Virus record (IMG/VR): IMGVR_UViG_3300033076_001226
Span: 1-49,549 of that record
Direction: 5' to 3' (one strand)
DNA length: 49,549 nucleotides
From: a virus
Lineage: Duplodnaviria > Caudoviricetes
In this document: piece after piece, positions 685 through 44,063 of the stretch
Numbering within the stretch: the stretch's first letter is position 1
Layout of the letters: each line of letters starts with the position of its first letter
Translations under genes and position numbers: made by a program
Notes under the pieces: model-generated
The model's input: only the letters and a program-made list of their open reading frames with translations
Databases searched by the model: none
What the model was told of the DNA's origin: nothing

Positions 685-931
685 GGGGATGACGGGAGGG
701 TCTTAAGCACCCCAGGAGTCCCTCGCGACCCCCCGGGGGGTGTGGCTCAAGGCTCCGGGGCCTGGCCGGCGAGCGGGCCTGGGAAGGCCGGCCGGCGGGG
801 TCTGGCGGGGGTCTGGCGGGTCGGAAGGCATCGCGTGCGATTTGACGTAAGTCCTTGACTGTGACAGGGTTGCATAGTGCGGGAACATGACCATTTCACA
901 CCATCGGCACATTGTGCAAGGCAGGTGACAG

Positions 932-1156
932 ATGGACCCAACGGCGTGTGCAAAGCGGATCAAAACGGCTATGGCAGACGGCGACCATACGGAAGTGATT
1001 GCGGGCGTTCGGGATTTGACACGGTGGCTTGACCGTGGCGGGTTCCTTCCTGTGGTCCCGTGGGCTACGGGATGGGACAGGAAGGCTTGGCAGTGGTGGT
1101 GTGTGGAGATGGTACGGGACGCACGTGGGATGTTGCGTGCTTTATCCATTCGCTAA
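932..1156 (+). CDS. Hypothetical early protein
   Basis: ORF with AGGTG RBS; first gene of the plus-strand arm. Confidence 0.65.
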   Translation: MDPTACAKRIKTAMADGDHTEVIAGVRDLTRWLDRGGFLPVVPWATGWDRKAWQWWCVEMVRDARGMLRALSIR

Positions 1157-1243
1157 CCGTTCTCCTCATCCTGCACACTCGACATCGGGGCCGGGTGTGA
1201 CGGGGTCGGAGGTGGTGGGATGACACACTTCAGGGGGCCGGTG

Positions 1244-1486
1244 ATGCGACTGTACAACCTGGGTTCGGTGGTTCGGGTGACTGTCAGCGAGCGTGAGGTT
1301 GACGCCTTCAATAGTCGGTGGCCGGGGTCGTCCCTGGCCGGGCTTCACGCGTTCGAATTCGAGGTCCGGTCGGGTGACTTGGTCGGGCATGACGGTCGGG
1401 GAGATGGGCCGGAAGCGGTTGCGTTGGCCGATGACGCGCAGCGGTGGGCGTGGAAGCGGTTGGGGCTCAAGTTGGTTGGTCGGTAA
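1244..1486 (+). CDS. Hypothetical early protein
   Basis: ATG after a CAGGGGG RBS; protein-like composition. Confidence 0.65.
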   Translation: MRLYNLGSVVRVTVSEREVDAFNSRWPGSSLAGLHAFEFEVRSGDLVGHDGRGDGPEAVALADDAQRWAWKRLGLKLVGR

Positions 1487-1514
1487 CTCAACACACATTC
1501 AAGGGGGTCGCACG

Positions 1515-1928
1515 ATGTGCGTTCATCGTTTGCTGCGGTCGGCGCGTCGTCGGTACTCACACATGATGGCCCACGCGGGCTACTCCTACACCGAAGCCGA
1601 AGGGCCGGAGCGGGGCCAGCGTCGGTGCTCTCGGGAGCTGGCGGCGGCTGTTGTGCGGTTCCGGGAGTACGGGGGCGAGTTCCTGTGGTCAGTGGACCAT
1701 GAGGCCACTGCGGAGCGGGGCGAGCGGCGGGACGCTCCGCTCTACCAGTGCGGGGCGGTATTGCCTGCGTGCCCGGATGGCGGGTGTGACGACAGGTGGT
1801 GTGGTGGGGCCGGTGGGCGGGGAACCAGTCTTGGTGCCGTCGACCTGGGGCCGGACGGGGACGGGCCGCATCGGGAAGTGGTAGAAGCCCAGTTGGCTTT
1901 GGAGCTTATGGGGAGGGTTCGGGCGTGA
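1515..1928 (+). CDS. Hypothetical early protein
   Basis: ATG after AAGGGGG; ends SLGAVDLGPDGDGPHREVVEAQLALE. Confidence 0.6.
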   Translation: MCVHRLLRSARRRYSHMMAHAGYSYTEAEGPERGQRRCSRELAAAVVRFREYGGEFLWSVDHEATAERGERRDAPLYQCGAVLPACPDGGCDDRWCGGAGGRGTSLGAVDLGPDGDGPHREVVEAQLALELMGRVRA

Positions 1929-2149
1929 CGTACCCAGATGGTTCGGGCGTGGTGGTGGTGGACGGTGTCCGGCTATCGGTCGGATGCCGTCGGCTCGATG
2001 GTTCGCGACACGTGTACGCTCTGAGCGACTGGGGCCGCGTGTCGGAGTTGGTGGCCGCCGGTGTTCTGGCGGTTGACGTGTGGCACGGCGACGGCACGTG
2101 TGGGCACGACAATTACCGTCTGTTGGGGGATCACTGTGAACCGTCGTGA
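1925..2149 (+). CDS. Hypothetical early protein
   Basis: GTGA start/stop overlap with the previous gene. Confidence 0.5.
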   Translation: MTYPDGSGVVVVDGVRLSVGCRRLDGSRHVYALSDWGRVSELVAAGVLAVDVWHGDGTCGHDNYRLLGDHCEPS

Positions 2150-2318
2150 AATCGAGGAAGCCGAAGCGGCTGTTCTCGCGCTGGAAGTGCAGCTACGCCT
2201 AGCGCGTGAGCGGCTGCGTGAACTCCGCCTGGCGGCCGGCCGGCGACCGGGTGATGGATCGGACCAGTTGACTTTGTTCGGGGGTGAGTCGGCCCCCGTG
2301 ACACCGTCGATGTTTTGA
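2136..2318 (+). CDS. Small coiled-coil protein with a QLTLF motif
   Basis: GTG after GGGGGA; heptad helix followed by DQLTLFG. Confidence 0.55.
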   Translation: MNRREIEEAEAAVLALEVQLRLARERLRELRLAAGRRPGDGSDQLTLFGGESAPVTPSMF

Positions 2319-2360
2319 ACACACGGGCCGGGAAACCCGGCCTTACTTTCAGGAGCACAC

Positions 2361-2750
2361 ATGCGACACGAGCGGGCAGCACACGTGCGGTTCTGGTCAT
2401 GGGAGAACGGTGGATGGGTCAAGGTGGCCATTCCGGCCACCGCGACTCAAGACGACCCCGTTTGTCATGGCACGGGCGGGCAGACAGACGAGGGGTGGGC
2501 GTCGTCCTTGCGGTACTGGTGGCGTGATGTGATCGACGGTGAAGAGTGGGTGTACGAAGCGAACGTCGACGAGGGTAGCGACTGTGACGGCGGCTACTCC
2601 CACGTTACCGTTTGCCGGTTCCGGGTGGCCGATGGCCTCCGGCCGGCAGTGTGGGATGACCACGACGTGCCCGGGGTGATGGTTCCCGCTGACTGGCAGC
2701 GGATCACGGCGAGTCGGCGGGACCAGTTCGCAGAGCTGGCCGGCTACTGA
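2361..2750 (+). CDS. Hypothetical early protein
   Basis: CAGGAG RBS; includes DEGSDCDG and RDQFAELAGY. Confidence 0.75.
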   Translation: MRHERAAHVRFWSWENGGWVKVAIPATATQDDPVCHGTGGQTDEGWASSLRYWWRDVIDGEEWVYEANVDEGSDCDGGYSHVTVCRFRVADGLRPAVWDDHDVPGVMVPADWQRITASRRDQFAELAGY

Positions 2751-2807
2751 CCCCTCCTACCGCTCCGTGGGTGGCACCGGGGCGATGGGAGCGGCCAATT
2801 CCGGCCG
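2751..2807 (+). repeat. Structured intergenic element, copy A
   Basis: CCCCTCCTAC-(variable stem)-GATGGGAGCGGCC. Confidence 0.75.
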
Positions 2808-2871
2808 GTGTGACAGGGGTAGATAGCTCGGTGGCACAATGTGCCATCCGACACATTCACGAGGGCGAAAC

Positions 2872-3405: not shown

Positions 3406-3407
3406 GC

Positions 3408-4788: not shown

Positions 4789-4858
4789 CACCATCCCAGA
4801 CTATGCCCCGGGCACATTGTGCCACGGGGCGGAAACCTCATGCACACAGGAGCCTGAC

Positions 4859-5801: not shown

Positions 5802-6653
5802 ATGGTTCCGGAGGAATGGTCGTTCATTCTGCACATTGTGCAGAACCCCACCGACCGCTTTGCGCGCGGCGTGTACGCGGATTGGTTGATTGAGCGCGGC
5901 GACGAGGAGGGCCAGCGGCGAGGGCGGTTTATTCTCGACTGCGTGTACGTGCGGGCTTCGCAGTGCGTGTGCCAGGACATGACGTGCGCGTGGTGTGAAT
6001 CGTTGGATCGGATATACCGCTATCTTGCCGAATGCCCGCCCATCTGGCTGGGCCGGGGTGTGGACGTCGAGATTGTGACCTCGGGCCGGCCGGCCTGGTA
6101 TCACACTGGCAGCCACACGGGCCAGTCGCTTTTTGCGATGTCGCACCTGATACGCCCCCAGGATTTACTCGACGCCCTAAGTCAACCGGTCGTAATTTTC
6201 ACCCGGCCGCAGGAATACCGATTCGCGGCCGTCGCCGATGGGTTTTCGGCGTCGCTCTTGTTACCGCGGCTTATCGATGAGCCGGTTATTGCGGTGGGCG
6301 ACATGCCGCCCAATGGGTTGGTTACTGTTCAAGAGCGCAGATCGACCGCAATGCAATGGTTTCGACGTTTTCGAGATCAGGCATGGGCCACCGTGGACAA
6401 GTTGAGCCAGCCGGGCAACTACCAGGTGATTCTCCGCACTCACGCCGGGCCGCGGTTGGCCGATCCGCTGGGCACCTCCGGTCGGCTGGTACACGTCGCG
6501 TTATCGCATCGCTTGGCATCGGTCGGCCCCGATGGCGTGAAGACCGAGGCGGCGACGGCGTGGGTCAGGCCGTCCGAGATTCGGGAGATAGTGGAGTTGA
6601 GGGCGGGCAGCGAGCGAATTACTTCCACACAAAAATACATCGAGCTATTCTAG
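5802..6653 (+). CDS. TIGR02996-like domain protein (divergent)
   Basis: FILHIVQNPTDRFARGVYADWLIERGD...RGRFI resembles the AIxxxPDDxxxRLVYADWLEE...RAEFI signature. Confidence 0.7.
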   Translation: MVPEEWSFILHIVQNPTDRFARGVYADWLIERGDEEGQRRGRFILDCVYVRASQCVCQDMTCAWCESLDRIYRYLAECPPIWLGRGVDVEIVTSGRPAWYHTGSHTGQSLFAMSHLIRPQDLLDALSQPVVIFTRPQEYRFAAVADGFSASLLLPRLIDEPVIAVGDMPPNGLVTVQERRSTAMQWFRRFRDQAWATVDKLSQPGNYQVILRTHAGPRLADPLGTSGRLVHVALSHRLASVGPDGVKTEAATAWVRPSEIREIVELRAGSERITSTQKYIELF

Positions 6654-7191: not shown

Positions 7192-7920
7192 ATGAGCAGC
7201 ATTGTCCCGGCCGCAGGGCCGGACCCCCTCTCCATTCTCGACAAGGCCATCACCAGCGGCGTCGGGTCGGCCGACCTGACCCGTCTCTACGAACTGGTCG
7301 AACGGCATCGTGCGGCCCAGGCCGCCGAGGCGTTCGCGAGGGCGGTGACCTCGTTCCAGGCGGAGTGCCCGGTCGTCAAGAAGTCGCGGCGAGCAGAAAT
7401 CCGGGGCAAGACGGAATACGGGTACAGCTTCGCCTCATTCGACGATGTGATGGCTGCCGCGGCCCCGATCCTGGCACGCCACGGCATCGTCGTCACGTTC
7501 TCGTTCCCGCCGGCCGAAGGGCCGATGATCCGGGTCATCTGCCGGGTCCGGGTTGGGACCCACGTTGAAGAGACGGAGATGACCGTCCCCGTGCCGGTGA
7601 TGTCGGTCAACGACACCCAGCGGCTCGGGGCGGCCGTCAGCTACGCGAAGCGGTATGCACTTTGTGCCGCATTGAACATCGTCGTGAGCGACGAGGATGA
7701 CGACGCCGAGCGGCTGGTAACCCTGGCGTCGGAAGCCGACATCCGCCTCATCCGGGAGTTGATCCAGTCGAAGCGGGTGGACCTTGCGAAGTTCTTGACG
7801 TTTGCCGGGGTGCCTGACCTGGATTCGATTACAGCGGCCCAGGCCCCCGCCCTCATCCAGACCCTCCGCCGCAAGCCCGTCGTTGCGACGGCTACACCAT
7901 CGAAAGGAGATAAGTCGTGA
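7192..7920 (+). CDS. erf: ERF-family single-strand annealing protein
   Basis: YSFASFDDVM...ILARHGI and QRLGAAVSYAKRYALCAALNIV..DEDDDA match the ERF signature; adjacent to an exonuclease. Confidence 0.85.
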   Translation: MSSIVPAAGPDPLSILDKAITSGVGSADLTRLYELVERHRAAQAAEAFARAVTSFQAECPVVKKSRRAEIRGKTEYGYSFASFDDVMAAAAPILARHGIVVTFSFPPAEGPMIRVICRVRVGTHVEETEMTVPVPVMSVNDTQRLGAAVSYAKRYALCAALNIVVSDEDDDAERLVTLASEADIRLIRELIQSKRVDLAKFLTFAGVPDLDSITAAQAPALIQTLRRKPVVATATPSKGDKS

Positions 7921-8567: not shown

Positions 8568-8685
8568 CCAACCCATTTGGCGAGTGGGCGAGTATCGGCA
8601 GCACAAATCACTACGTTTTGAATGGTGGCACATTGTGCAAAGCGGCCGGGGCTCAAGACCCTCAACACCCTCAGATGGAGATTCG

Positions 8686-9501
8686 ATGGCCCCAAAGAAT
8701 AGATTCGTCGTGGCGGATGTACCGCCGATTGTCGATCCGGAGTTCAAGGCTGTCCTGGAGGTGCACGACGAGGAGACTCGAAAGGCTCTCCGGGAAAAGA
8801 TCATGGCCGAGGGGTTCCGGGAGCCCCTGACAGTTTGGGGTGATCCAGACACGCCGGAGCATTTGCCCAACATCCTGATCGACGGGCACAACCGGCTCGA
8901 CATCGCGAGCGAGTTGAAGGTCCGGTACACGGTGCGATATCTGAAGTTGCCGGGCATGGACCCGCAGAACCCGGAGCACCGGGCCGCAGTGGTGAGTTGG
9001 ATCATCGAGAACCAACTCTGCCGCCGAAACCTCAGCCCGACCCAGCGGACGTATTTGATCGGGAAACTGTTGCACGAATCGAAGTCGGGTAAATTGCCGG
9101 ACCTGAACGGTGAGGATCTTGCCGAGCGGTTCAAGGTGTCACGGCGGACCGTGTCCTACGCGGCGAAGTTCGCGGAGGCGGTGGATGCTGACCCGCAGAT
9201 GAAGCAAAAGGTGCTCGAAGGTGGGAAGGTACCCAACCCTCTCCGCCAGAAGCCCAAGCCGGCCCCCAAGCCGGCACCGGCCCCAGGATCGAAGCCGGCC
9301 GTCCAACCGCACACACTCAATTGGGACCAGTGGAAGGCCGGGATGGGGACATGTGTGAGGGTGGCGACGGCGTTCTACACACAGCACGGTCGCCAGACCG
9401 ATCAAGGTTTGGAAGACCTGACCAATCTTCTGCAACAAGCGGAGGCCCTTATGCGTGAGGAGTATCACGCAATCACCGGCCGCAAGGCCCCGGGGGTGTG
9501 A
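8686..9501 (+). CDS. ParB-like N-terminal domain plus helix-turn-helix protein
   Basis: REPLTVW..ILIDGHNR (ParB/Srx box), NQLCRRNLS, then the HTH LAERFKVSRRTV. Confidence 0.8.
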   Translation: MAPKNRFVVADVPPIVDPEFKAVLEVHDEETRKALREKIMAEGFREPLTVWGDPDTPEHLPNILIDGHNRLDIASELKVRYTVRYLKLPGMDPQNPEHRAAVVSWIIENQLCRRNLSPTQRTYLIGKLLHESKSGKLPDLNGEDLAERFKVSRRTVSYAAKFAEAVDADPQMKQKVLEGGKVPNPLRQKPKPAPKPAPAPGSKPAVQPHTLNWDQWKAGMGTCVRVATAFYTQHGRQTDQGLEDLTNLLQQAEALMREEYHAITGRKAPGV

Positions 9502-10267: not shown

Positions 10268-11881
10268 ATGCGAGCGCTCTGGCCCATCCAAGAGAACGGT
10301 GTCAACGGTGTCTGTGGTCTTATCCACGACGGAGCTACCCGGATCCTGTTGACCTCGCCGACTGGAACGGGCAAGAGCGTCATGATGATGACCCTAATCC
10401 GGATTTTCCGAGAGAGGGGCTGGCTGGCGGTCGTGTACTCGAACCGCAGGCTACTCACCGCCCAGCTGGTGGCCAATCTGCGAGCCGAGGGGTTCAAGGT
10501 TGGGGTGCGGGCGGCCGGGCACACCGACCAGCGACATCTGCCGATCCAGGTCGCCTCACTGCCGACCGAGCAGCGGCGGCAGGACGAGTACGGTGGCTGG
10601 GAAATCCACGGGACCGGGCAGAAGTGCCTGGTTCTGGTGGACGAGGCCCACAACCAGAAGGGGCCGAAGACGCTCAACATCCTGAACAAGCACGTTCAGG
10701 CCGGGCATGTGGTTGTCGGCGTGACGGCCACACCCATCGACCTCGGGGGGCTCTATGACCACCTGGTCATTGCCGGGGGCACGTCGGAGGGCCGGCGGTG
10801 CGGAGCGCTTGTGCCAGCGGCCCACTTTGGGCCAGACGAGCCGGACCTGGCCAAACTCAAGAGGCACCGCGAGGGCGAGGATTACACAGAGAAGGAGGTG
10901 CGTCAGGTCATGCAATCCTCGGTCATCTGGGGCCGGGTGATCGAGTATTACCGGCTGCTGAATCCGGCGGGCAAGCCCGCCATCTTGTTCGGCCCGGGAG
11001 TGAAGGAATCACTCTATTTCGCCGAGCAGTTCACAAAGGCCGGCATCCCCGCCGCACACGTCGACGGCGAGGATGTCTGGGTCAATGGCCGGATGTGGCA
11101 GTCGAGCCCCAACCTCGTTGGGGAGATTTTGGAGATGAGCCGAAACGGCCAGATTAAGGTGATCTGTAACCGGTATGTCTTTCGCGAAGGAATCGACTGC
11201 CCGTGGTTGGAGCATGGAATCTTCGCCACGGTGTTCGGCTCTCTGCAATCCTACATCCAGTCGGGCGGGCGGCTCTTGCGGGCGAGTCCGTCAACCGGCA
11301 AGACGCAGGCCGTGATACAGGATCATGGGGGTCACTGGCACAGACTGGGGAGCCTGAACTGCGATTGGCCGTGGTCGATCGACAGCACGACGGCCAGTGT
11401 GGTTGGGGTGCGGGCCGACCGGCTCCGCAGGAAGCGGGAGACCGGGGAAGTCGAGCCGTTCCGGTGCCCACAGTGCACACGGATTCTGACGGTGCGGGTG
11501 TGCCCGTGCGGCTTCGAGCCACGCAAGCGATCGAGAGTCGTCGTGCAGGTCGACGGCACATTGAAGGAGTTGATGGGCGACATCTACCGGCCGAAGGCGG
11601 TTGCCAAAGGCAGCGGTGCCATCGGGAAGTGGGTGGCCATGTACTGGCGGTCGGTACGGATGAAGAACAAGCCGCGGACGTTTGCCCAGGCGTTCGCTTT
11701 GTTTGCGGCTGAAAACAATTGGCAGTGGCCCGACCGGTCCTGGCCACTCATGCCCAAGCGGGACATCGACGTGTACAACCGGGTGTGCGATGTGCCCTTC
11801 AAGAATCTGGTCGACGGGGGGCGGTATGAGAACACGAAGGTTCAGGATGTGGCAGTCGATCCTGAGTATGAATCGGCGTGA
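10268..11881 (+). CDS. Superfamily 2 DEAH helicase with a C-terminal Zn ribbon
   Basis: SPTGTGKS, LVDEAH, TATP, EGIDCP, QSGGRLLR, CPQC...CPCG. Confidence 0.92.
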   Translation: MRALWPIQENGVNGVCGLIHDGATRILLTSPTGTGKSVMMMTLIRIFRERGWLAVVYSNRRLLTAQLVANLRAEGFKVGVRAAGHTDQRHLPIQVASLPTEQRRQDEYGGWEIHGTGQKCLVLVDEAHNQKGPKTLNILNKHVQAGHVVVGVTATPIDLGGLYDHLVIAGGTSEGRRCGALVPAAHFGPDEPDLAKLKRHREGEDYTEKEVRQVMQSSVIWGRVIEYYRLLNPAGKPAILFGPGVKESLYFAEQFTKAGIPAAHVDGEDVWVNGRMWQSSPNLVGEILEMSRNGQIKVICNRYVFREGIDCPWLEHGIFATVFGSLQSYIQSGGRLLRASPSTGKTQAVIQDHGGHWHRLGSLNCDWPWSIDSTTASVVGVRADRLRRKRETGEVEPFRCPQCTRILTVRVCPCGFEPRKRSRVVVQVDGTLKELMGDIYRPKAVAKGSGAIGKWVAMYWRSVRMKNKPRTFAQAFALFAAENNWQWPDRSWPLMPKRDIDVYNRVCDVPFKNLVDGGRYENTKVQDVAVDPEYESA

Positions 11882-12153: not shown

Positions 12154-12382
12154 TTTGGCACAATGTGCCAACAAGCCCAAACCGATGACTTGGTGGCAGC
12201 GGGCGGCGAGGATCGAGAAGCTTCTGGAAGGGCTGAATCCACAGCAAAAGGTGACGCTGCTAAACTCGATCCGCGACCAAGTCTACATGAGCAGCATCCC
12301 GACAGGCAGCGAGCAGTCCCGGGCCGTGGTCGCCGGGACGGCCGAACAACCCGCTTCCTTTAACCCGGTGGGTGGATCATGA
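12116..12382 (+). CDS. Hypothetical protein
   Basis: Operon-coupled ORF; ATGA overlap with the next gene. Confidence 0.6.
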   Translation: MAAKDKTAKPAGDLAQCANKPKPMTWWQRAARIEKLLEGLNPQQKVTLLNSIRDQVYMSSIPTGSEQSRAVVAGTAEQPASFNPVGGS

Positions 12383-14683: not shown

Positions 14684-14762
14684 TTTCACCGTCAACCGGC
14701 CCTGGGCACATTGTGCAGGGCACACATTCAGGAGTGCAACATGACCGTGAAAAGGAACCAAC

Positions 14763-15358: not shown

Positions 15359-15392
15359 GCCGATTGCACATTGTGCACACAGGAGAAAACGG

Positions 15393-17805: not shown

Positions 17806-20800
17806 CTATTTCCGGGGTGCCCCCGGCGGCTTGTCAGACGACTTGATTCCGAGCCTGCCGAGACCCTGCATCGTCCGTTCGTACACATCCTTCTCTTTCT
17901 TCGGCGGCTTCGCACCACTCAACTCTTTCACGATCGGCTCGATGTACGCCTTGGCCAGCGGGTTTAGCTCCCAGGCGGCAGCCATCGCGTTGTTCCACGG
18001 CTGGCTCTCGCCCTTCCCGGCTCTCGTCGAGACGTGTGTGCCCATCGTGTTCTGGCCGGTCAGGGCCACATGCCCAACGTCCACGATTGGCCCGAAGCCC
18101 GGGTGAAGCGCGGCGATCAGCATTTGCTTCAGCCCCTCGCCGGTGCCCGTCTGCCAGTTCGCCCCTGCACGTTGTGCACCGGACCGTTGCGATTCGAGAA
18201 CCGGCAGCACGCCAATCGACCGTAGCCCCCGGCTCAGGCCCGTCAGCCCCATCAAATCGAAATACTGCGTCTTCCCGTTCCGAGTGCCGAGTTTGACCGC
18301 CCCGATCGGCGTCTCGTCGTCCCCATCGACCCGGCCCCACTGTGCGTAATTCGCCACGGCCGCCATCATCGGCAGGAGTGCCAGCCGGCCGATCATCTCC
18401 GCATTCACCCGGGCCGATGCACCCATTGATGTCGTCTTGAGCCCCGGCCGGATGAACACCGCTCGCAGACCATTGATGAGGTAAGTCGACCCGGCCGTCG
18501 CGAACGGCCCGAGGCCCGTGTCTCGCAGGAGTGCTACCAGTCGGTGCTGGGTCGCCTTGTTGTAATTGCCGAGTTGGTTCACGAAGTCCCGCCGCCCCCC
18601 CTCTGTATCGACAATGTCTCCCCGCTTCACCATCCGGTCATACGCCCGGTCCATCGTCAGCCGCATGGCCCGGTCCATGAGGGTGAGGAAGTTGCCGACG
18701 TGCGTGAATGGGTTGAGCTTGCTGACAAACCCGCCGCCGGTGTCGGCACCATGTTCCCGCATGGAGCCGATCCGGGCGAGTTCCGCAACCCGCTTCATGA
18801 CCTCGGGTTCTTTGTAAACCAAGTCCTTCATGAACCGGAATACGTCCAGCACCTTTGCCCCCGGTCGCACCAGGAGTGAGCCGAGGTTGACGGTGTGGCT
18901 GGTGGCTTCACCCAGGGAGTAGATGGCTGCGGTCGTCGCCGCTGCTGCCGCTGGCAGGCGGATCGGGGATTGATCGGTCTTGAGCACTTGCCGCACTTCG
19001 CCGTAGGCATCGGGGTGAATGTACAGGTTGATTTCCCCGGCCTTGGCCGCCTGCGTGTTAGCCGGCGGGGTGACATTTGGAAGTTTGACCCAGCCCTCGT
19101 GTGTCGACTCCTCCCCGGGGGCTCGCCATTCCGCCAAGCCGGCGTCGACGAGTGCCCGGTACATCTCCGCCTGTGCCGCCAGCGGGAGCCGGTCTGCCAT
19201 CGTCTCTTCGAGCATCCGCCCGAGGTCGATCACATACCCGGCCTTGCTGGCACCGGTCGCCGCTGTGGCCGCCCGGAGACGACGAGCCTTCTGTGCAACG
19301 AGGTTTCCGCGGGAGGGGGCCGTGATGTCGAGGACGTTCGGCCCTTCCTGCAAGAGCACACCGGTATAAGCGCTCTCGCCAGGTTTCTTCCGGACCAGGG
19401 TGATTGGCAGGTCTGGTATCTGCGTCGGGGCGTTAATCGGGTCGGCATCCGGGATGCCCTGAGCCCGCTTGAAGGCATCGTCGAGGATCGGGCCAACGTG
19501 CTTCTTGTACCGGTCGATGGCCCCCTGAACCATCGGGTCTTTGAGGGCCGCCTGATAGTCGCCTTCGGTGAGAAGGGGGTTTGTGGCCCACTCGTCCGGC
19601 GTCTTCCCGCCGATCACTGTGCCAACATCGGCGGCCTCCGCCAGCCGTGCCGCAGCCTCCGCCTCTTTGGCGTCGATGGCATCCTGGCTGGCCCCCTGCC
19701 GCTGGAGAAGTTGGGCCTCCTGCTCAAGCCGCTGGGACTCGCCGACAAACCAGTCCCGCATGTGCCGCAGTCGCATTTCCACAAGCACCGCACCCACCAG
19801 GGTGCGATCGGTCAACCGGTGGGCCTTGCCCATCACGACATCGAGAAGGAACGGCGCCAGTTCTCTTGCCCATTGCTTTGCACTGCCGGCCCGCGCCACA
19901 GCATCTCCGGCCGCTGGCGAATGGCGAGAGGTGTGTGTGGCCGATGCACCGCCCAGCTTGCGGAAGATGTCCACGATGTCGGTGGCAAACTTGACGGCTC
20001 GCTCCCGGAACGTCGGCCCCACTGGATCGGGCGGAGCCTGCTGGAATGGCATAGCCGTCGAGAAATCGTCTGGCGTATTCAACTTCTCGCGCAACATCTG
20101 CTCGGCGATCTGCTCGGCGGTCAGTCGCTCTCCTCCGATGGCGGAGTCGATGACGGCCCTGGCATCTGCTGCTGCTGATTCGGCGACATGGTCTGTAAAC
20201 TCTCGCCCCCTGGCGTCAGCTGCGGGGTCGTTGAACCCAAAGTCGAAAGAAGCATCTGCGCCCGGCGGGATGGGTTCAGCAAGCTCTGCGCCGTCCGCAG
20301 CCTCATCCGCTGCTCGAATAACCTCCTCAATTTCGGCGGGAGTATGCTCGGATCGAGCGTCTTGAACCGTCGCATCGAATTCCTCCTGTTGTTTGCGCCA
20401 GTATTCCTCGTAGGCCAACTCGGCACTACGGGCTGAGTCGAACGCCAGAGACTTGTGCCGTGCCACCAGGGCATCGGCAAACGCTTGCATGTCGTCAGAT
20501 GGCAGGTCGCCGGTGGTGTGAAGTTCCTTGGCCAGAAGATCGAGCGGCCGGCCGTTCTTGCTGAGGGCCTGCGATGGGAAGCCAAGTTCGATGGCGTGCT
20601 GTCGGCTGCCGAATATGGACTTGAACGCGGGGTCGTTGTAATTGATCCCGCCGTAGCCGATGATGACTTTCATCAGGTCGCCCTGCCGTTCATCGGCCGC
20701 AGCCATCTCCTTCAGCTTCCTGAGCCGGCCGGCCTCCTCCTTGGCCTCCTCACGAATCCGCTTCGCTTCGGCCCTCGCCAACTCTCGCTTCTCCTTCTCG

Positions 20801-23481: not shown

Positions 23482-24909
23482 TCACCACGAAAAGGGTTGA
23501 AGGTTGGGGCTGTTGTCGGTCGCTGGCGAAGTCCGGCCAAACGGATCGCGGCTTGTGTTCGGTGCGGAAAGCATCTGCTGAAGGTGCGTGAGCGACTGCT
23601 GAATCCTCATGAAGTGCCCGAAGTCTTCCGGTGACTGAACCCGCATCCGCTGCACGCTGCCGTACTTCTGGTACAGGCCCTTCGCGACCTCGATCTGGTC
23701 GCCGTACATTTTCCGCTGCTCGGCACTGAGCGATTTCTCGCTTTGCACATTGTGCATCGCTTTCTCGAACAGCCCCACATTGGTCCGTTGTTCAGGGGTC
23801 GCATCCTCCAGTTTCGCAAATCCTGGCGGGGTCGCCGTGACCCGCGGATCGTCCGGGCGAGGCCCCGGCCGCTGGTCGACACCGAACGGTGTGCGGTTGG
23901 GGCCGCCTGGCCGTTCACCCGCCCGCTGGCGGAAGGCTGCCATGTGCTCGTCCCGGTTTTCGGTTCCAACAAGTTGAACCATCATCCGGCGAACAGCTTC
24001 CTGGTAGACCTTCGGGTCTTGGTACTGATTGGGCATCTCCTTGCCGGCCGCGTCCATCTGTTTGTGGTTCGCCCACCCGGTCACGATTGAGTGAGCCCTC
24101 TCCAGGGCCTTGGTGTACCTCTCGAAGTGATCGGCCTCCGCCTTGTCGTAGTGCGTTTGCTCGGTGTGGAGGAGTTTCTGCTGGGCGAGGGCCGCATCAC
24201 CCTTCCCACTGGCATCCCGACTGTGGGCGAAGGGGTCGTAATACTCCCCGTTGGCTTTCTGAAGGAGGCGAAACTGCTGCCCGGTGACGGGGTCGGTCAC
24301 CAGCGGGAGGTTGTCGACTTGGTTGAGCGCGAACGCTTGGTTTGCCGCCTGCATGGCCTGCTGCTGGGCCATCTGATTCATCATGCCGCGGGTCTGCTGA
24401 GCTTCCTGCTGGGCTTGCTCCAATCGCAGGCGTGACTGGATCGGGCTCACCTTGCCCATGATCTGAGCCGTCAAATCCTGCCGAACTTCCTCGGGCAGAT
24501 TGCTCTGCCGGTTTACCCACGCCAGGGCGTTGTTGAGTTGATCGGCCCGCCGCCGCTCTTCCTGCGAAATGAGCAACTGCTGTTCGCCGAACCGCTGCGC
24601 TTCAAGCTGAGCCCGCAGATACGGCTCTGCCATCTGCGTGTTGGCGTTCTGCTGGGCGATATCGAGCCCCCGCCCCTGCATCTCCAGTTCGGCCGCCCGG
24701 CCATATGTGGCAAGGGCCGGGTTCCCCCCGCCTCCGCCGCCGCCCCCACCCCCGGCAAACGACAGTCGGGCCGCAGCCTCACGCTGCCCAGCGACGGCCT
24801 GTGCCGCCGAGAGCAATCCGCCAAAGTCTTGGTTCCACTGAAGGGCTGCCCCGTAGTCCCGCGAGGTTCGCTCGTCATACGGCTGGGGCGATTCAAAGTT
24901 GATTGGCAT
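23482..24909 (-). CDS. Internal virion/ejection protein (Q-rich, helical)
   Basis: GGGGAG RBS; position and composition. Confidence 0.65.
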   Translation of the reverse strand: MPINFESPQPYDERTSRDYGAALQWNQDFGGLLSAAQAVAGQREAAARLSFAGGGGGGGGGGNPALATYGRAAELEMQGRGLDIAQQNANTQMAEPYLRAQLEAQRFGEQQLLISQEERRRADQLNNALAWVNRQSNLPEEVRQDLTAQIMGKVSPIQSRLRLEQAQQEAQQTRGMMNQMAQQQAMQAANQAFALNQVDNLPLVTDPVTGQQFRLLQKANGEYYDPFAHSRDASGKGDAALAQQKLLHTEQTHYDKAEADHFERYTKALERAHSIVTGWANHKQMDAAGKEMPNQYQDPKVYQEAVRRMMVQLVGTENRDEHMAAFRQRAGERPGGPNRTPFGVDQRPGPRPDDPRVTATPPGFAKLEDATPEQRTNVGLFEKAMHNVQSEKSLSAEQRKMYGDQIEVAKGLYQKYGSVQRMRVQSPEDFGHFMRIQQSLTHLQQMLSAPNTSRDPFGRTSPATDNSPNLQPFSW

Positions 24910-28360: not shown

Positions 28361-29998
28361 TTAGTGACCCTGGCCCTTGCCACGTTGCCGGACCTTGCCC
28401 TGGGTCGCGAGCATGGTTCGGATCGTCTCCATCTGCCAGGCTGAGGACGACGACAGTTTCAGGTAGATCGCCCTGGCCGCCACGCGAACGCTCTCGGTGA
28501 ATCCTACCCCGGCACTGAACGTCCCGCTGCACACAGCCGGCAGGTCGAGAGCTTCTTCCGCCGTGTTTCCGGCAAATATCTCCCAGGTCACATCACCGGA
28601 GTGCATTCCGAGGATGCCCTGGATTTCCCGCATCATGATCTCGTCGAAGTCTTTCGTGATAAACGGCCCGATGACCACGTAGCTGTTGATCGGAACGCCA
28701 TCGTCTGTTGTCGCGGTGGGATTGATGGCCCGCACGTACCCGTCCCAGCACCCGAGGAGCGGAACCCGGTCGTTCGGCGTGTTGCCGTCATAGATGAGGC
28801 AGCACAAGGGGTCATGGCCGGTCGACGTGAAGCGGTCTGTCCACCATCCCTGTGTTCGCTGCTCCCAGAAAAAGTGGGTGCTTGCACTTTGTGCATCCAG
28901 CGGGGTGACAAAGAGGTGAAAGCCCTGAAGCCGGTCGTCCCACTGAAGCCGGATCGAGTTGTTCCCGGTGTTGATGTTGAGCAACAGAGACTCGATGGCC
29001 CCGCTGATCCGCTGGGGCTGTTGGCCCGGCACCATTGAGTACACGCCCATCCTGTTCGAGCAGAAGTACACAGTGCCAGCCGGGTCTTTCGTCCAGCAGA
29101 TGCCCCACGTCCCACCAACGATGTCGCTGACGCGGTCAAGCTGGCCGCCAGCAAGCGGATCACCGCGCAGGATGTAGATGGAGTTGGACCCGAAAAAGAT
29201 GAGGGTGTCGTCGTTGTACGGGCAGAGCGACATGATTGTGTCGCCGACCAGCCCGAGTGGCGAGTTGTTCCCGGCGACCGCCTGTGTCGCGGTCTGGGAT
29301 GTGGGCGAGTAATCGAAGTTGTTGGGATCGCCCACCGCCGACATGAACCAGTTTTGCGAATCGAACGTGAGACCGGAGAGAACCGTGCGACCTCGCCATG
29401 TGCAGATGAGCCGAGGCGTGTTGCCGGCCCTGTCGACCGGCAGGACGGACGTGATGGCGTTGCCGTCCAGGTCTTGCGTGCCGGCGACCCAGTTTTCCAG
29501 CGAGTTGGTGAGCGGGATGTACTTCGTGTAATTGACGCCGTCGGCGAAGTACAAGACCTGGCTGTTCGCCGCCGAGAACATGATCCCGGAGTAATTGAGT
29601 GGCTGTGCCCGGCCCGTGTTGTTGACGGCCGGCGTCCACGCGGTTGCCCCGGGCTGGGCGGTGAACACTTGGCCCTGGCTGACGGCGACCAGAACGACCG
29701 CCCGGCCGGATTGCGATGTCTGGCTCACGTCTCCCCCCACGATGACGATGGAGTTCAGTTCTTGAACAACCCAGGTGACACCGGCTGGCTGGGTCGGCAG
29801 GTACTTGATGGTTCCGGGTCGGCTGCCGCCGCGAAGGCGAAGGAGCGAGAAGTCGTAAGCCCGCACGTTCACCGCCTCCCGGCTTGTGCGGGCGTACTCA
29901 TTGTCGGGGCCGACAGGCCGGTTGGTTTGACGAGAGAACGGGCACCCGTTGTCGAGGCCCGCCTTGGGGAAGTGGATGTCTTTCTGGGCTTCAGGCAT
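28361..29998 (-). CDS. Tail nozzle/stabilisation protein (P22 gp10 or T7 gp12-like position, beta-propeller)
   Basis: WRGRTVLSG..NWFMSAVGDPNNFD, LIFFGSNSIYILRG, QRISGAIE; size and position. Confidence 0.7.
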   Translation of the reverse strand: MPEAQKDIHFPKAGLDNGCPFSRQTNRPVGPDNEYARTSREAVNVRAYDFSLLRLRGGSRPGTIKYLPTQPAGVTWVVQELNSIVIVGGDVSQTSQSGRAVVLVAVSQGQVFTAQPGATAWTPAVNNTGRAQPLNYSGIMFSAANSQVLYFADGVNYTKYIPLTNSLENWVAGTQDLDGNAITSVLPVDRAGNTPRLICTWRGRTVLSGLTFDSQNWFMSAVGDPNNFDYSPTSQTATQAVAGNNSPLGLVGDTIMSLCPYNDDTLIFFGSNSIYILRGDPLAGGQLDRVSDIVGGTWGICWTKDPAGTVYFCSNRMGVYSMVPGQQPQRISGAIESLLLNINTGNNSIRLQWDDRLQGFHLFVTPLDAQSASTHFFWEQRTQGWWTDRFTSTGHDPLCCLIYDGNTPNDRVPLLGCWDGYVRAINPTATTDDGVPINSYVVIGPFITKDFDEIMMREIQGILGMHSGDVTWEIFAGNTAEEALDLPAVCSGTFSAGVGFTESVRVAARAIYLKLSSSSAWQMETIRTMLATQGKVRQRGKGQGH

Positions 29999-31116
29999 TA
30001 GGGCACCGGGCCGAAGAAGGATTGGATGTCGGCGAAAATGGCAGACCAGAGGTTTGCCTGTGTCGGGTTGTTCGGCAGTTGCTTTGCCTTGAAGTAGGGG
30101 CCGTTGAACACGGTCGCGAGGATGGCCCCGTAGTTGTTGATAAACGTCCGCTGCCCCGCCGCTCCTGTGAATGTGCCTGGGTAGAAACTCGAAGCGTAAT
30201 CTGGCACCAAAGTTCCCGGTGTCGATCCGCTGGTATCTTCTGACCAGTAGAACCTGCCAGCGTAATCCTCGAACTTGCTCATCACGCCTGGCATGATGGC
30301 CAGCTCATTACTGATCCGCCCGTTGTACACGCAAACCTGGATGTAGCCGCCGGCATTCGGCGGATCGCCGCCATCGGTGAATGTGGCTGTCCCGCCCGGG
30401 CCATCGGGAGGTCGGCCTGCCGTAGACTTTGTTGCCGAGGCCCCATACCCCACGAGGCCCGTCCCAAATGTTGACGATGTGGCAACAAAGACCTTGCCGC
30501 CGCGGTATCTGATCGTCGGCATGGGTGTAATTTGAGGCACACAGCACAATGTGCCATCGCCAAGTGTGAATCCAGAAAATGTGGCTTGTGCGACAGGCAG
30601 GCCGACCCACGGCGCCGACTGGATGTAGGGCGGAGTTCCAGGGTCTCCTCGTCCGCCGTTCGGAAACACGATTGCAACGGAAATGTTCTTGGGTGCGAAG
30701 TACGATGCCCAGGCGCTTGCCACGCCAGCGGAAATCGTCCCATCGTCAAACACCGACAGAATGACCGTGTTTGGGAGCCTTGGCAGAAACCCAGGATTGC
30801 CCCATGCACGCGGCGCATCCCAGAATCGCGTGCTGGTCGCACCCCAGGAAAGCTCTTGTGCATTCGCCCCTCGGTCGGGCAAGCCGGGCAGGTAGCCCGC
30901 CTCATACAGACTGCCGCGAGTCCACAGAATTGGATCGGTGACGCCCGGCCCGACCATCAGTTTGCCGAGTGGCATTGCGTATCCGATGAACCCATCAGTG
31001 ATTTCTGCGGTCGCCCCCGTGCCCGGCACTGGCCCAGTTGGAGCATACGCACTTGCGTACTGCACCTGGCCAACATCCAGGTACGCCTGGGGAAAACTGG
31101 CGAACTTGCGGGTCAT
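29998..31116 (-). CDS. Putative virion protein
   Basis: 372 aa; G/P/aromatic-rich; translationally coupled. Confidence 0.65.
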   Translation of the reverse strand: MTRKFASFPQAYLDVGQVQYASAYAPTGPVPGTGATAEITDGFIGYAMPLGKLMVGPGVTDPILWTRGSLYEAGYLPGLPDRGANAQELSWGATSTRFWDAPRAWGNPGFLPRLPNTVILSVFDDGTISAGVASAWASYFAPKNISVAIVFPNGGRGDPGTPPYIQSAPWVGLPVAQATFSGFTLGDGTLCCVPQITPMPTIRYRGGKVFVATSSTFGTGLVGYGASATKSTAGRPPDGPGGTATFTDGGDPPNAGGYIQVCVYNGRISNELAIMPGVMSKFEDYAGRFYWSEDTSGSTPGTLVPDYASSFYPGTFTGAAGQRTFINNYGAILATVFNGPYFKAKQLPNNPTQANLWSAIFADIQSFFGPVP

Positions 31117-32919: not shown

Positions 32920-33468
32920 TCAGACCTCCGCGTACAGGCAATTCGCACTTGTGGCCGATCCGCCGGTGCCGAATCGGACTTCCACAAGCTGAGACCCTTT
33001 GCGGTCCAGGATGATCGAGGCCATCACGTTGCCGGTCGGGCTAATGATCTCGTTCGAGATGTTGGCGTTCCCGACCCCCAGCGTGATTGTCCCGCAAAAC
33101 AGGTGGGTGTTATCGACCGGCGTGCCGGCCACACCCGCCAGTGTGCACAATGTGCACGTGAACGATGCGAGCAGGTACGGCACCCACAATGGAATGATGG
33201 GTGTCGTCGCCCCTTGCCGCTGGCGAACACTCCGCCAGCCGTAGATTTTCATGCTGAACGTGTTGGTGGCCGACCCCACGCCATACGGCACGATGAGCAG
33301 GCCATTGCTCACCTTCCCGCCCTGGCCCGTCTCTCCTCCGCCGATCGACAGAACCCCATCCCCGGTTGGAGTCGTTGCGGTCGGCGACGGCTCCGTGATG
33401 GACGACGTTGTCACGTCGGCCCCGGGGTTGGAGATTGCGAACGGTGGCGAGATGGTTTCGATAATCAT
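32920..33468 (-). CDS. Putative virion protein
   Basis: T/G-rich beta protein in the structural operon. Confidence 0.65.
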   Translation of the reverse strand: MIIETISPPFAISNPGADVTTSSITEPSPTATTPTGDGVLSIGGGETGQGGKVSNGLLIVPYGVGSATNTFSMKIYGWRSVRQRQGATTPIIPLWVPYLLASFTCTLCTLAGVAGTPVDNTHLFCGTITLGVGNANISNEIISPTGNVMASIILDRKGSQLVEVRFGTGGSATSANCLYAEV

Positions 33469-35454: not shown

Positions 35455-35482
35455 GTCATCCCCCGTTTTGGCACATTGTGCC

Positions 35483-38024: not shown

Positions 38025-38990
38025 TTACTGAAGCAAAGCGGCGACGGCTGCCACGGCTCGCGACGTGGCCTCCTGGTCGCTGTCCTGTCCTTCGTCGCCG
38101 CCCCCCGTGCGGTGACTTGGGCGATTGAGGGCTCCCGCGTTCCACTGGTCGGTGGTGAACCGGCCGGTTGATGGATCACGAGGCCGTTCTTGCTGAACCG
38201 GCTGCGATTGCCCGGCCAAGTCGTATGCACCCCGGGCCTGTGGTGGGGTGGCCGACTGAGGCTGGACATTGAACAGCAGCTCGGCGTTCTGCCGAATTGC
38301 CGCGGTCAGTGCGTGGACATTCGGAACCTCCCCGGGCTTGAGCCCGATGCTTCGCAAAACGGCGATTCGCCGCTGCATTTGAGCTGGCTGAATGGTGGCT
38401 GCCGATCCCTGGCCAAAGTGGTTGGCCCATGCTGGCAACTGGGCAAAGGCCGCCTCGATTGCCGTGTCTGCCGTCAATTGTGCCGTCTGAACAACCCGGC
38501 CCCGGACATCGCCGAGGCCCTGGTCCAGTTCGCCCGCCTTTGCTCGCAGTCGCTTCACCTCGCCGAGCAGCACATCGAACGCCTTTTTGATTTGCGGGTC
38601 GGTGTCTTCGTGCAGGTCAAACGAGGGCTCCGGCTCCGGCGGGAGAGGGGGCGGCTGGATGGCCCTCGCCTGTTGTTGCTGCGGGTTTGGCACATTGTGC
38701 ACAGGTGACTTCAGTGCTCGCGCCGCCGCCCCCACCATCCGCCCAAGTTGGTCCGTTGGGACGTTCAAATCGGCGGGGTCAAAGCCGAGTTGTTCGGCCT
38801 GACGCACAAGCCAATCTGGATGGGCTGGAGTGGTGGGAGCGGACGGCGATTGTACCTGTGGTTGTGGCGGCTGGCCCGTGCCGCCCTCAACCACGGCCCT
38901 CGCCCCGGGGGGAGGCAGAGGTTCCACTGGCTCTGGTGCATCGTAACGGGCCGCCAGTTGTTCGGCTGTCATCGGTTGATCCTGGGCCAT
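38025..38990 (-). CDS. Capsid scaffolding protein
   Basis: P/Q-rich low-complexity helical protein directly upstream of the capsid gene; GGAG RBS. Confidence 0.65.
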   Translation of the reverse strand: MAQDQPMTAEQLAARYDAPEPVEPLPPPGARAVVEGGTGQPPQPQVQSPSAPTTPAHPDWLVRQAEQLGFDPADLNVPTDQLGRMVGAAARALKSPVHNVPNPQQQQARAIQPPPLPPEPEPSFDLHEDTDPQIKKAFDVLLGEVKRLRAKAGELDQGLGDVRGRVVQTAQLTADTAIEAAFAQLPAWANHFGQGSAATIQPAQMQRRIAVLRSIGLKPGEVPNVHALTAAIRQNAELLFNVQPQSATPPQARGAYDLAGQSQPVQQERPRDPSTGRFTTDQWNAGALNRPSHRTGGGDEGQDSDQEATSRAVAAVAALLQ

Positions 38991-42015: not shown

Positions 42016-43853
42016 ACCCACTCCTCGTAAAGCCGTCGCCGGTAATCGGCTTCGGCTGCCAGTTGATGCCGCCAGGCCAGAGAGCCGATCTTCACGTCTT
42101 CCTTGGCATCCACAAAGTTGGCAAGGCCCGATGAGACTTGCACCGCCATCTTCCACGCAAGCGCATCGGCGATAACCAGGTCGGCGTGATTGATCCCGCC
42201 GCCCGACGGGTCGTTGTTGGTGGCCTTCCTCGTCGCCTCCACCTCGCCCCTTGGACCATATGCGAACGAGAGGCAGTCTTCGAGGGCCTGGCGGGACGGG
42301 TTGAGCAGTTTACCAGTCTGAATCGCCTGCCGGTATTCTTCGAGTAGCACCCGCTTCGAAGCATCTGTCGGCATAAACCCCGGCCGGGTTGCGGTCGATA
42401 TGGCGATCCCATCCTCCACCGTGCGGAACATGATGTTCTGGTAGCCGAGGGCGAGTACCCGCTTTCCGAAGAGACTCCCCACACCGCCCGCGTGCTCCCA
42501 GGTCAGTTTGGCCGGGATGTTGTCCATCGACCGGAACAACCGGCACAATGCGACCACGAAGTTGGCGAAATCGCCGGGGTCAATGTTGGCGTCGGCGTAT
42601 TCGAGCACCTTGGACCGCGAACTGGCGTCGATGATCGAGAGGCAGGAGGGTGTGGCCCCGGTGCCCGCCGAAATGTCGCACCCGGCCCCATACAGAGACA
42701 CCGGTGCATGGCCGTTGCCAACCGGCAGAATCCACATCTTGATCCGGCCGGATCGGTCCGTGACGAGGCCCCGGGGGATGCCCTTTTCCTTGTCGTAGTC
42801 CAAATTGCCAGTCCAGAGCGGTTCCTGGCTGTGCCGCTGAAGTTTGCGAATCTCGATTGCCGAGAAGAACTGGCTTGTTGACCCTTGTGGGTTGATGTCG
42901 AGGTCCATCGCCACATCGCGGGCACTCGCCCGACGAATGCACTCCGCGTCGTACCACGGCGACCGCAAGCCTGGGTATGGCCCGCCAGTCGGCGAGCCGT
43001 CCATCACGAACCGGAATTCCTCGGGGTACTGGTAGCTCTTGTCATGCACTACCACCCGGTTGGTTTCCTGATCGTAGTGATATGCCCCCTTCCCCTTGTC
43101 CGGGTGCATGCTCCAGTGGAGAACCACCTTCTCCATGTCCACCCGCTGGGAAATTTGGTAGGCCGCGGTCTGCATCCCGATGTGCGTGAAGTTGAAGATT
43201 CGGCAGCCAGTTGTATCGGCCGTGCGACCGAGAATCTGGAAGTCCTCGGCGATCTGCGAGAACTCGTCGACGAACATCGCCGTGCATCGACCACCGACGC
43301 CCGCTTTCCCCGTTGACGCCTGGCCGGTGATTGATGACGTGCCACAGGTGATGACGAACTTGGACCGGTCGATTTGTGGGAACAGCCACTTCGGCTGGTA
43401 GCGACTGATGAAGTCGAGTTTCCAGAACAGGCTGTCGGAGTCGCCGGGCTTGTCCACCGCATCGGCGTTACGGGACACACACAGAAACTTTTTCCCATCG
43501 TGGAACTTGATGAACCAATCCATGACGATGAGGAACAGCCAGGACGCCCCCATCTCCCGGCTCTTCTCGACCGCCAAGTCCCGCTGTCGCTCAATGCACG
43601 ACAGGATCTTGCGAACGGCATCTTCCTGTGCCGGCCATGTGATGAACGGCCCGATCTCACGACCGTTGACCCGCGGGTTGTACTGGAAAACGAAGGTGTT
43701 GATGTAAAAGAGGAGGTCTTCCCGGCAGACGCGGATCAAGTCTTTCCGCAGCCGGGCGTCCTTCGACGATTGCTGGATCACAAAACGACGAAACCTCAGA
43801 TTGTCTCTGAGGTTTCTGGGAACCTGTTTGTGCCACTCTCCAGGGCTAAACAT
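42012..43853 (-). CDS. terL: Terminase large subunit
   Basis: PFITWPAQ, EKSREMGASW (Walker A variant), MFVDEF (Walker B), GCDIS and HADLVIADALA (nuclease). Confidence 0.92.
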   Translation of the reverse strand: MFSPGEWHKQVPRNLRDNLRFRRFVIQQSSKDARLRKDLIRVCREDLLFYINTFVFQYNPRVNGREIGPFITWPAQEDAVRKILSCIERQRDLAVEKSREMGASWLFLIVMDWFIKFHDGKKFLCVSRNADAVDKPGDSDSLFWKLDFISRYQPKWLFPQIDRSKFVITCGTSSITGQASTGKAGVGGRCTAMFVDEFSQIAEDFQILGRTADTTGCRIFNFTHIGMQTAAYQISQRVDMEKVVLHWSMHPDKGKGAYHYDQETNRVVVHDKSYQYPEEFRFVMDGSPTGGPYPGLRSPWYDAECIRRASARDVAMDLDINPQGSTSQFFSAIEIRKLQRHSQEPLWTGNLDYDKEKGIPRGLVTDRSGRIKMWILPVGNGHAPVSLYGAGCDISAGTGATPSCLSIIDASSRSKVLEYADANIDPGDFANFVVALCRLFRSMDNIPAKLTWEHAGGVGSLFGKRVLALGYQNIMFRTVEDGIAISTATRPGFMPTDASKRVLLEEYRQAIQTGKLLNPSRQALEDCLSFAYGPRGEVEATRKATNNDPSGGGINHADLVIADALAWKMAVQVSSGLANFVDAKEDVKIGSLAWRHQLAAEADYRRRLYEEWV

Positions 43854-43859
43854 GGGGCC

Positions 43860-44063
43860 TCACCGACGCAAAGGACACACACCGTTCACGCAGCCGGATT
43901 GCACAACCGGCCCGCTCGACACACCCAGTGTACCGCAACTTCCCACCGTGCAACCGAACGTCGGCTGGCAAGGTTTGCACAATGTGCAACGGCGTCGGCC
44001 GAAGGCACTCGCCTCACTCGAAATGCCCAGGATCGAGACCAGGACCAAGAGTAGCAGTCGCAT
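43860..44063 (-). CDS. Small secreted Cys-rich protein
   Basis: AAGGAG RBS; signal peptide ending ASA; C-terminal CVNGVCP. Confidence 0.6.
   Translation of the reverse strand: MRLLLLVLVSILGISSEASAFGRRRCTLCKPCQPTFGCTVGSCGTLGVSSGPVVQSGCVNGVCPLRR

Follow-up and report, generated by a model that had tools for sequence, protein, structure and literature searches.

The window analysed here, the whole 49,549-base virus record IMGVR_UViG_3300033076_001226, carries the palindrome GCACAWTGTGC scattered from one end to the other, and the question that it raises is which protein reads these sites and to what end. The comparative evidence set out below makes it very probable that the ParB-like protein encoded at 8686-9501 binds 20 such palindromes. 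For the fuller picture, in which this protein binds, closes as a clamp and damps early genes without ParA in the manner of the plasmid protein KorB, the chances appear to be about even.

As claimed in an earlier sequence-only reading of the window, 14 exact copies were found, compared to a mean of 0.06 and a maximum of 1 in 100 dinucleotide shuffles. When one mismatch was allowed, the number rose to exactly 20 sites (shuffle mean 1.07, maximum 5), the one-mismatch sites being four copies of GCACTTTGTGC plus those at 1510 and 18167. The enrichment check against a Markov background that had been proposed was also run, and GCAC-N3-GTGC was the top gapped palindrome in the genome, with 26 copies versus 0-4 for each of the other spacers of 0-11. 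Symmetry across the 20 sites was complete at positions ±2 to ±5 (20/20) and was retained at ±6 in 13/20 and at ±7 in 8/20, giving the symmetrised consensus T-K-GCAC-AWT-GTGC-M-A. The 20 palindromes are confirmed as real, and their positions relative to our own gene calls (adjusted) are the following, where ORF stands for open reading frame:

907..917, palindrome, 15 nt upstream of ORF 932
1510..1520, palindrome variant GCACGATGTGC, overlapping a possible start at 1517
2834..2844, palindrome, 28 nt upstream of ORF 2872
4812..4822, palindrome, 37 nt upstream of ORF 4859
5831..5841, palindrome, near the 5' end of the TIGR02996-domain gene 5802-6653
7657..7667, palindrome variant, within the ERF recombinase gene
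8628..8638, palindrome, 48 nt upstream of the ParB-like gene; putative, likely autoregulatory site
12158..12168, palindrome, in ORF 12116-12382 or on the alternative start 12163
14706..14716, palindrome, upstream of the DUF5131 gene
15366..15376, palindrome, 17 nt upstream of ORF 15393
18167..18177, palindrome variant, within the 1890-aa late gene
21830..21840, palindrome variant, within the 1890-aa late gene
22280..22290, palindrome variant, within the 1890-aa late gene
23745..23755, palindrome, within late ORF 23482-24909
28884..28894, palindrome variant, within late ORF 28361-29998
30544..30554, palindrome, within late ORF 29998-31116
33145..33155, palindrome, within late ORF 32920-33468
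35471..35481, palindrome, at the 5' end of ORF 34690-35508
38690..38700, palindrome, within the ORF preceding the capsid gene (likely scaffold)
43977..43987, palindrome, 124-196 nt upstream of terL, in an unsupported ORF or intergenic

The arrangement described in the sequence-only reading was recovered. On the left arm, seven of the ten sites lie 0-50 nt before a start codon or on it and the other three are within genes, and 48 nt separate the end of the site at 8628 from the ATG at 8686, where a distance of about 50 bp had been given. On the right arm, all ten are inside late ORFs and all three frames are used, the site at 43977 being uncertain since its ORF is unsupported and it is perhaps intergenic before terL. 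Counted together, seven sites are in leaders and 12-13 in genes, that is, a dozen-plus dispersed odd-centred palindromes both near to and far from promoters, with a mean gap of 2.4 kb that is rather more even than random (p = 0.02). Eight exact copies fall in called genes, whereas 300 synonymous-codon shuffles yielded a mean of 0.22 and a maximum of 2. Therefore, selection acts on the DNA and not on the protein, as had been claimed.

These numbers bear on the possibility that no protein reads the sites, which would then have arisen by chance or as artefacts of codon use, or be RNA hairpins or remnants of a mobile repeat. Short palindromes such as GCGGCCGC are indeed enriched in some relatives that lack ParB (G045), but both the shuffle and the synonymous nulls were exceeded many-fold, the flanks of different sites are unrelated past ±7 and a palindrome of 11-13 bp with a 3-nt centre would make a poor hairpin, leaving this explanation with a probability close to nil. 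A restriction site was also considered, as the motif contains CACNNNGTG, and was rejected because 26 of the 34 occurrences of this sequence are the longer GCAC-N3-GTGC and because such sites would be expected to be avoided.

The protein named as the best candidate reader is encoded by the following gene, in which the helix-turn-helix is abbreviated as HTH:

8686..9501, plus strand, ParB-like gene, 271 aa (phrog_1033, E 2.7e-5; HTH_11 weak, below cut-off)

Its product is laid out as a ParB N-terminal fold, an HTH at about residues 142-168, a Lys/Pro linker and a two-helix C-terminal hairpin at 213-264, and the AlphaFold2 model (pLDDT 85) shows the ParB N-terminal domain, the HTH and the hairpin. 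The best solved matches of this model in Foldseek were pNOB8 ParB-N, Noc, Spo0J, the ParB proteins of Caulobacter and Myxococcus, and KorB (8qa9, E 7.8e-4), with E values of 2e-6 to 8e-4 and prob 1.00 to the ParB, Noc, Spo0J and KorB structures, and its best viral matches were phage ParB-like proteins. At the sequence level, the PF02195 profile did not match the protein and a search of solved structures returned nothing below E 0.07. The GxxR box, the Box II phosphate motif defined in PMC12704722, is present as GHNR at residues 67-70, with G67, H68 and R70 invariant in 21 homologues. In total, 42 homologues were found at E <=0.001, many of them fused to MT-A70 or Dam methyltransferases. Phages often encode orphan ParB-fold proteins, of which hardly any has a known target, and such orphans are reported to bind CTP, ATP or GTP, with no means of predicting from sequence which one (PMC12704722).

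No viral contig came out of direct searches with this protein or with P0003, its closest homologue. A metagenome scan gave two short, distant loci, the 50.8-kb contig of P0003 not being among them, and a genome scan gave 21 loci, none labelled planctomycete. In the phage collection, the best tblastn matches reached 25-36% identity for ParB and 27-30% for the helicase encoded downstream, and the phage appears to have no close cultured relative.

To relate palindromes to ParB-like genes, a first set was assembled from 28 records with a related capsid, terminase or ParB, with 22 of 80 terminase loci taken by record length. GCAC-N3-GTGC was at background level in these records (0-2 copies each) and about control level in 31 helicase relatives (0-5 copies each), so the window motif is private, being enriched in none of the 59 relative records. 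As for the co-occurrence and co-variation that the sequence-only reading proposed to check, GCACAWTGTGC itself is enriched in no relative, and a position of the recognition helix tracks a base of the cognate palindrome, as described below. A host factor that loads at the sites, which the same reading had allowed, is disfavoured because the motif is at background in both the 28 and the 31 relatives.

Each first-set record was then scanned blind for its best gapped palindrome. An own dispersed palindrome (3-14 copies) was detected in the six records with a ParB-like gene (G003, G006, G010, G014, G015 and G018) versus one of the 22 others (G011; Fisher p = 1.9e-5). Among the 11 complete or terminally repeated records, the figures were 4/4 with ParB versus 0/7 without it. 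A profile of the clade ParBs detected no further member among the 22 ParB-less records, and G013 and G019, which have a DUF3102 gene at the same locus, had no dispersed palindrome. The second set comprised 26 long helicase-locus records, five of them partial, classed by their pre-helicase gene before scanning. When both sets were pooled under a stricter rule (6-bp arms and at least four dispersed copies), 12/25 records with ParB were positive versus 1/29 without it (p = 2e-4, in statistics that ignore kinship). Thus, roughly half of the members with ParB have a genome-wide set, and members lacking ParB hardly ever do. Moreover, a copy lies in the ParB-like gene or within 150 bp of it in 10 of the 14 genomes with a dispersed palindrome (3.2 expected), that of G018 being a loose two-mismatch copy.

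Several points weigh against this association. The first cut-off, log10 p below -7, was set after the scores had been seen, and it was the known palindromes of G010 and G018 that prompted the search for their ParB genes. With this cut-off the second set gave 10/19 with ParB versus 3/7 without it (p = 1.0), the three ParB-less positives being short 8-9-mers or a three-copy hairpin. The stricter rule was devised after this failure and gave 7/19 versus 0/7 in the second set, which is not significant (p = 0.13), so that 12 of its 19 ParB-bearing records had no genome-wide set. In the wider ParB family, only one of 80 viral loci (L088, which is G006) had a dispersed palindrome within 20 kb. Conversely, palindromes were found where ParB was not. 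G008 (L187-L191), 93% complete, has 28 exact GTCCG-N5-CGGAC in 96 kb and no match to three ParB profiles, although PF02195 likewise misses the window's own protein. The fragment G009 (L192) has ten GTAAG-N3-CTTAC in 16 kb and no ParB found, and the fragment G011 (L311-L312) has 24 GGGGA-N2-TCCCC in 37 kb, also with no ParB found, its helicase region being off the contig. Finally, G007, a 14-kb fragment with no ParB and no protein match to the window, carries three copies of the window's 15-mer.

The following was recorded in passing. Three copies of the window's 15-mer lie at L014:3257, 6541 and 13246, in an unrelated phage fragment with an intein-like insert in terL and, by eye, a P22-like portal. 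Single 15-mer matches in 57 viral contigs mostly resemble chance or codon use in conserved genes. An HTH-like ORF is present at L192:3754-4440. The 8-mer mentioned above is strongly enriched in G045 (26 copies) and in L347, unrelated to the ParB pattern.

The cases without ParB are what speaks for a different reader, either a phage regulator not recognised as such, as for stoperators, or a host transcription factor. Most early genes of the window lack any family match in PHROGs and Pfam, the contig is perhaps incomplete (CheckV 66%), and both the 28 palindromes of G008 with no ParB match and the shared 15-mer of G007 could be explained in this way. Nevertheless, the motif is not enriched in the 59 relative records, and the fit of the window protein to the helix code and the in-gene copy of L047, both described next, would have to be coincidences. 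We give this explanation little likelihood.

Specificity of ParB and Noc can be switched by a few HTH residues (PMC7383237). In the family studied here, a strong palindrome was found in the linker before the HTH in 33 of 50 distinct family genes versus 3 of 50 control stretches. The usual state of the family is one site within the gene itself, and in about half of the clade's phages it has given rise to a set spread over the genome, with each phage having a sequence of its own. The code table comprised 61 distinct rows with a called HTH, with 27 matches dropped for want of an HTH call and 11 rows, including those of the window and L088, left out because their palindrome was weak. When position 8 of the motif VSxxTVx(R) was compared with base ±3, Arg went with G in 40/40 cases and Asn, Ser or Gln with T in 10/10. 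On a tree built by a quick method without the linker and the recognition helix, the non-Arg label was scattered, with 11 changes, as in shuffles. The proteins L092 (Asn) and L126 (Arg), near-identical elsewhere, differ in residue and base alike.

The window protein was left out of the training set for the residue-base matrices. It has Tyr (residue 157) at position 8, and T, G and C occupy +3, +4 and +5 of the window sites. The two half-sites ranked 4 and 25 of 1024 with the non-Arg matrix versus 591 and 727 with the Arg matrix, so that protein and motif appear to fit the rule. Similarly, the Arg proteins of G006 and G055 go with dispersed sites that carry G. The homologue P0003 has Asn at position 8, for which the rule would predict T at ±3. 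In L047, an unrelated phage, the same palindrome TGGCACATTGTGCCA lies inside the ParB-like gene directly after the HTH, which supports a ParB-like reader for this sequence and also marks the edge of the code. Against the assignment, Tyr is not among the training residues and the window has G at base +2, where 16 of 20 non-Arg arms have T. The rule also fails in the L047 subfamily, which combines Arg with a T at +3, and it is not obeyed by other ParB subfamilies. As a whole, the association of palindrome and gene, the helix code and the L047 copy support well the choice of the ParB-like protein as the best candidate reader.

The gene is followed by a helicase with which it seems to travel:

10268..11881, plus strand, SF2 helicase gene (phrog_16, E 3.6e-51)

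The helicase alignment gave 43 loci, and in 41 of them synteny was preserved, with a ParB-like or DUF3102 gene directly before the helicase or one or two small genes away. The pre-helicase gene is ParB-like in most loci and DUF3102-like or other in the rest. The DNA-binding part at its N-terminus varies, belonging to one of three ParB subfamilies, to DUF3102 or to others, whereas the two-helix C-terminal hairpin is shared by 41/43 loci. About half of these genes end 0-60 nt before the helicase match. Two DUF3102-type genes hold a strong in-gene palindrome (L333:9460 and L334:9065), a hint that DUF3102 itself may bind DNA at specific sites.

The chief rival to transcriptional control is a role in replication, suggested by the gene's constant place ahead of the helicase and by the conservation of the hairpin. 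In this reading, the same ParB-like protein would be a site-finder marking origins or restart points for the downstream helicase. The persistence of the hairpin despite the swapped DNA-binding part, the short distance to the helicase and the palindromes inside even the DUF3102 versions are all in its favour, and the in-gene site is reminiscent of lambda O and its iterons. However, the sites are single, evenly spread palindromes and not iterons clustered beside an AT-rich stretch, many of them are in early leaders, and the hairpin may merely be the dimerisation domain that ParB proteins are described as having there (PMC12704722). A complex prediction of the hairpin with the helicase (score 0.11) had no interpretable answer and was counted neither way. 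We consider replication rather unlikely, though worth keeping in view.

As for what the ParB-like protein would do once bound, the closest model is KorB of the IncP-alpha plasmid RK2, described as having 12 OB sites, 13-bp odd-centred palindromes, over about 60 kb, with distances to promoters that range from a few bp to over 1 kb (PMC13768133), and as loading at its site, sliding under CTP control and repressing at a distance (PMC13768133, PMC11790492). By analogy, a ParB-like dimer would dock on the palindromes and close into a nucleotide-gated sliding clamp, which would damp its own gene and the early genes as KorB does on RK2, but without ParA. The clamp would also spread over the remaining genome, with the late in-gene sites as loading points that keep up the spread. 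Damping of its own and early genes is favoured because leaders hold seven of the ten early-arm sites, one of them ahead of the ParB-like gene. Given binding, transcriptional control is about as probable as all other jobs together, and the clamp behaviour and the nucleotide used are more weakly suggested.

The window system resembles KorB/OB in having a ParB-family HTH protein and an odd-centred palindrome at dispersed sites, in the presence of KorB among the fold matches, and in early sites that occupy leaders, one of them before the protein's own gene, a pattern described for KorB (PMC13768133). It differs in that it belongs to a tailed phage in which no IncC/ParA was found and no KorA/TrbA locker was recognised, its consensus is not the OB sequence TTTAGCSGCTAAA, its protein has a short helical C-terminal hairpin and is encoded in a recombination-helicase module, and its site sequence changes from phage to phage. 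Thus, the system works like KorB/OB yet is not a member of it, because there is no IncC/ParA and the sequence is different. Three results stand against a KorB-like clamp as a whole: half of the sites (10/20) are deep in late genes, far from likely promoters; a search of 600-9000 for sigma-70-type promoters around the early sites found none; and no clamp-locking KorA-like partner was recognised among the window proteins by PHROGs, Pfam or a model scan. To these can be added that a repressor or ParA could be absent from the contig and so missed, because CheckV gives it 66% completeness.

Another job for the same protein would be genome positioning, in which the coated genome is tethered, compacted or segregated through host ParA or SMC, for instance in a plasmid-like carrier state. 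The ParB fold found by Foldseek, the roughly even spacing (p = 0.02) and the lack of an integrase among the 73 scanned proteins are compatible with it. Nonetheless, the KGGxGK[TS] motif of ParA was absent from all 55 records searched, the window and 54 relatives, and the ParA-binding motif (L/F/I)G[KR]G(L/F/I) given in PMC12704722 is not in the 8686-9501 translation. In addition, partition needs few sites, and DNA was not condensed by KorB in vitro (PMC11790492). We therefore judge positioning to be quite improbable.

Noc is a ParA-less paralogue of ParB with scattered sites, and parS measures 16 bp. The sequence-only reading had likened the palindromes to parS, to Noc sites and to mycobacteriophage stoperators, and of this the kinship with the parS and Noc readers stood, the fold family being the same, whereas KorB/OB and the Cluster O repeats discussed below are closer than the systems named. 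The likeness to ParB-parS and Noc includes the domain order and a specificity switched by few HTH residues (PMC7383237, PMC12704722). In contrast, the window site is odd-centred and of 11-13 bp, and neither a ParA nor a ParA-binding motif was found, so that this does not appear to be a ParABS partition system.

Cluster A stoperators are likewise many and spread over the phage genome, in and between genes (PMC6550527, PMC4351075), but are described as asymmetric, oriented and read by the immunity repressor of a temperate phage (PMC6550527), whereas the window sites are palindromic at ±2 to ±5 without exception. No stoperator-type immunity repressor, integrase or parABS was recognised among the 73 window proteins, and the absence of ParA and of a CI-type repressor agrees with what had been said from the sequence (PHROGs, Pfam). 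This is not a stoperator system.

A closer case among phages is that of the Cluster O mycobacteriophages, in which a 17-bp dyad, TGTTCGG-N3-CCGAACA, is reported in more than 30 copies, 34 in Corndog, with its function left open (PMC4351075). Both are N3-spaced dyads with an A/T-rich centre spread across a phage genome in and between genes, and both genomes have an orphan ParB-like gene and no integrase or parAB (PMC4351075). The Cluster O paper lists gp90 among three possible DNA-binding proteins and calls a role of the ParB-like protein in genome stability unlikely, without assigning a reader to the repeats (PMC4351075). Here, Corndog gp90 (L446:6425-7933, 502 aa) was found to have ParB_N above cut-off and an HTH-like stretch, with exact Cluster O repeats on both sides, at about 135 bp beyond its 3' end and about 360 bp upstream of its start. 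The sequence, the host and the ParB subfamily are different, and gp90 gives only weak matches to the ParB profiles used here. With KorB/OB (PMC13768133) and the Cluster O dyad (PMC4351075) as precedents, the earlier description of the system as new was overstated. A literature search aimed at genome-wide palindromes assigned to a ParA-less phage ParB found no paper, most subscription papers being outside its scope.

Regarding the phage itself, the window is one entire virus record of 60-66% GC. PHROGs and Pfam gave names to ERF recombinase, YqaJ exonuclease, ParB-like protein, SF2 helicase, VRR-NUC nuclease, DUF5131, terminase, SU10-type portal and adaptor, capsid protein and papain-like peptidase among its 73 proteins; integrase, CI and ParA were not recognised among them. 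Bases 1-77 recur exactly at 48622-48698, with the sequences diverging beyond, and this 77-nt repeat suggests a circular genome or assembly in which the assembly branches or a terminal segment varies. Two TIGR02996 domains, which from the name of the model we take to be tied to Gemmata, pass the cut-off; the inference of a Gemmata-like host, to which they point, is drawn solely from them. The DUF5131 match in gene 14732-15149 spans only profile positions 174-220 of 243, for which reason the gene looks like a truncated member. A tandem (GACT)n tract of about 50 nt lies at 5067-5122, at the end of ORF 4859-5077.

Other elements were noted around the early leaders. A conserved element, TGTGACAGGG-N-T-N2-ATAG, is present at 859-880 and 2808-2830 (also at 1195), 26-48 nt upstream of the palindromes 907 and 2834, and is a candidate early promoter element that is not sigma-70-like. 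The 13-mer GATGGGAGCGGCC occurs three times in early intergenic or leader positions (2784, 3447 and 3877) and is possibly a second regulatory motif. The sequence ACACATTCA lies at 1493, 2851 and 14722 on the plus strand and at 17736 on the minus strand, ahead of the ribosome-binding region in several leaders, and three of its copies adjoin a palindrome. Readings of the palindrome as a sigma-54 promoter or an NtrC-type site were rejected, as its spacing does not fit the consensus.

A wider proposal can be made for a planctomycete-type clade, in which a ParA-free ParB clamp and a rapidly re-coded private palindrome (4-25 sites, even in structural genes) would together form a self-mark, so that in co-infection the clamp, and through the hairpin the helicase, would act only on the phage's own DNA; the one-residue/one-base code would predict the site, and the same logic would solve the Cluster O repeats. 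Taken with all its parts, this proposal is speculative and unlikely to hold.

The system is likely a partner-less variant of a plasmid-type system, carried by an uncultured soil-type phage. A protein, a candidate site and a predicted rule of specificity are now available for an orphan phage ParB, a class almost without known targets, and natural pairs of protein and site with differing sequences could act as orthogonal DNA labels. The question standing since 2015, whether gp90 is the reader of the 34 Cluster O repeats in Corndog, becomes testable in a lab-grown phage, and docking sites for ParB-like proteins, if true, would also explain the unexplained repeats of the lab-grown Cluster O phages.

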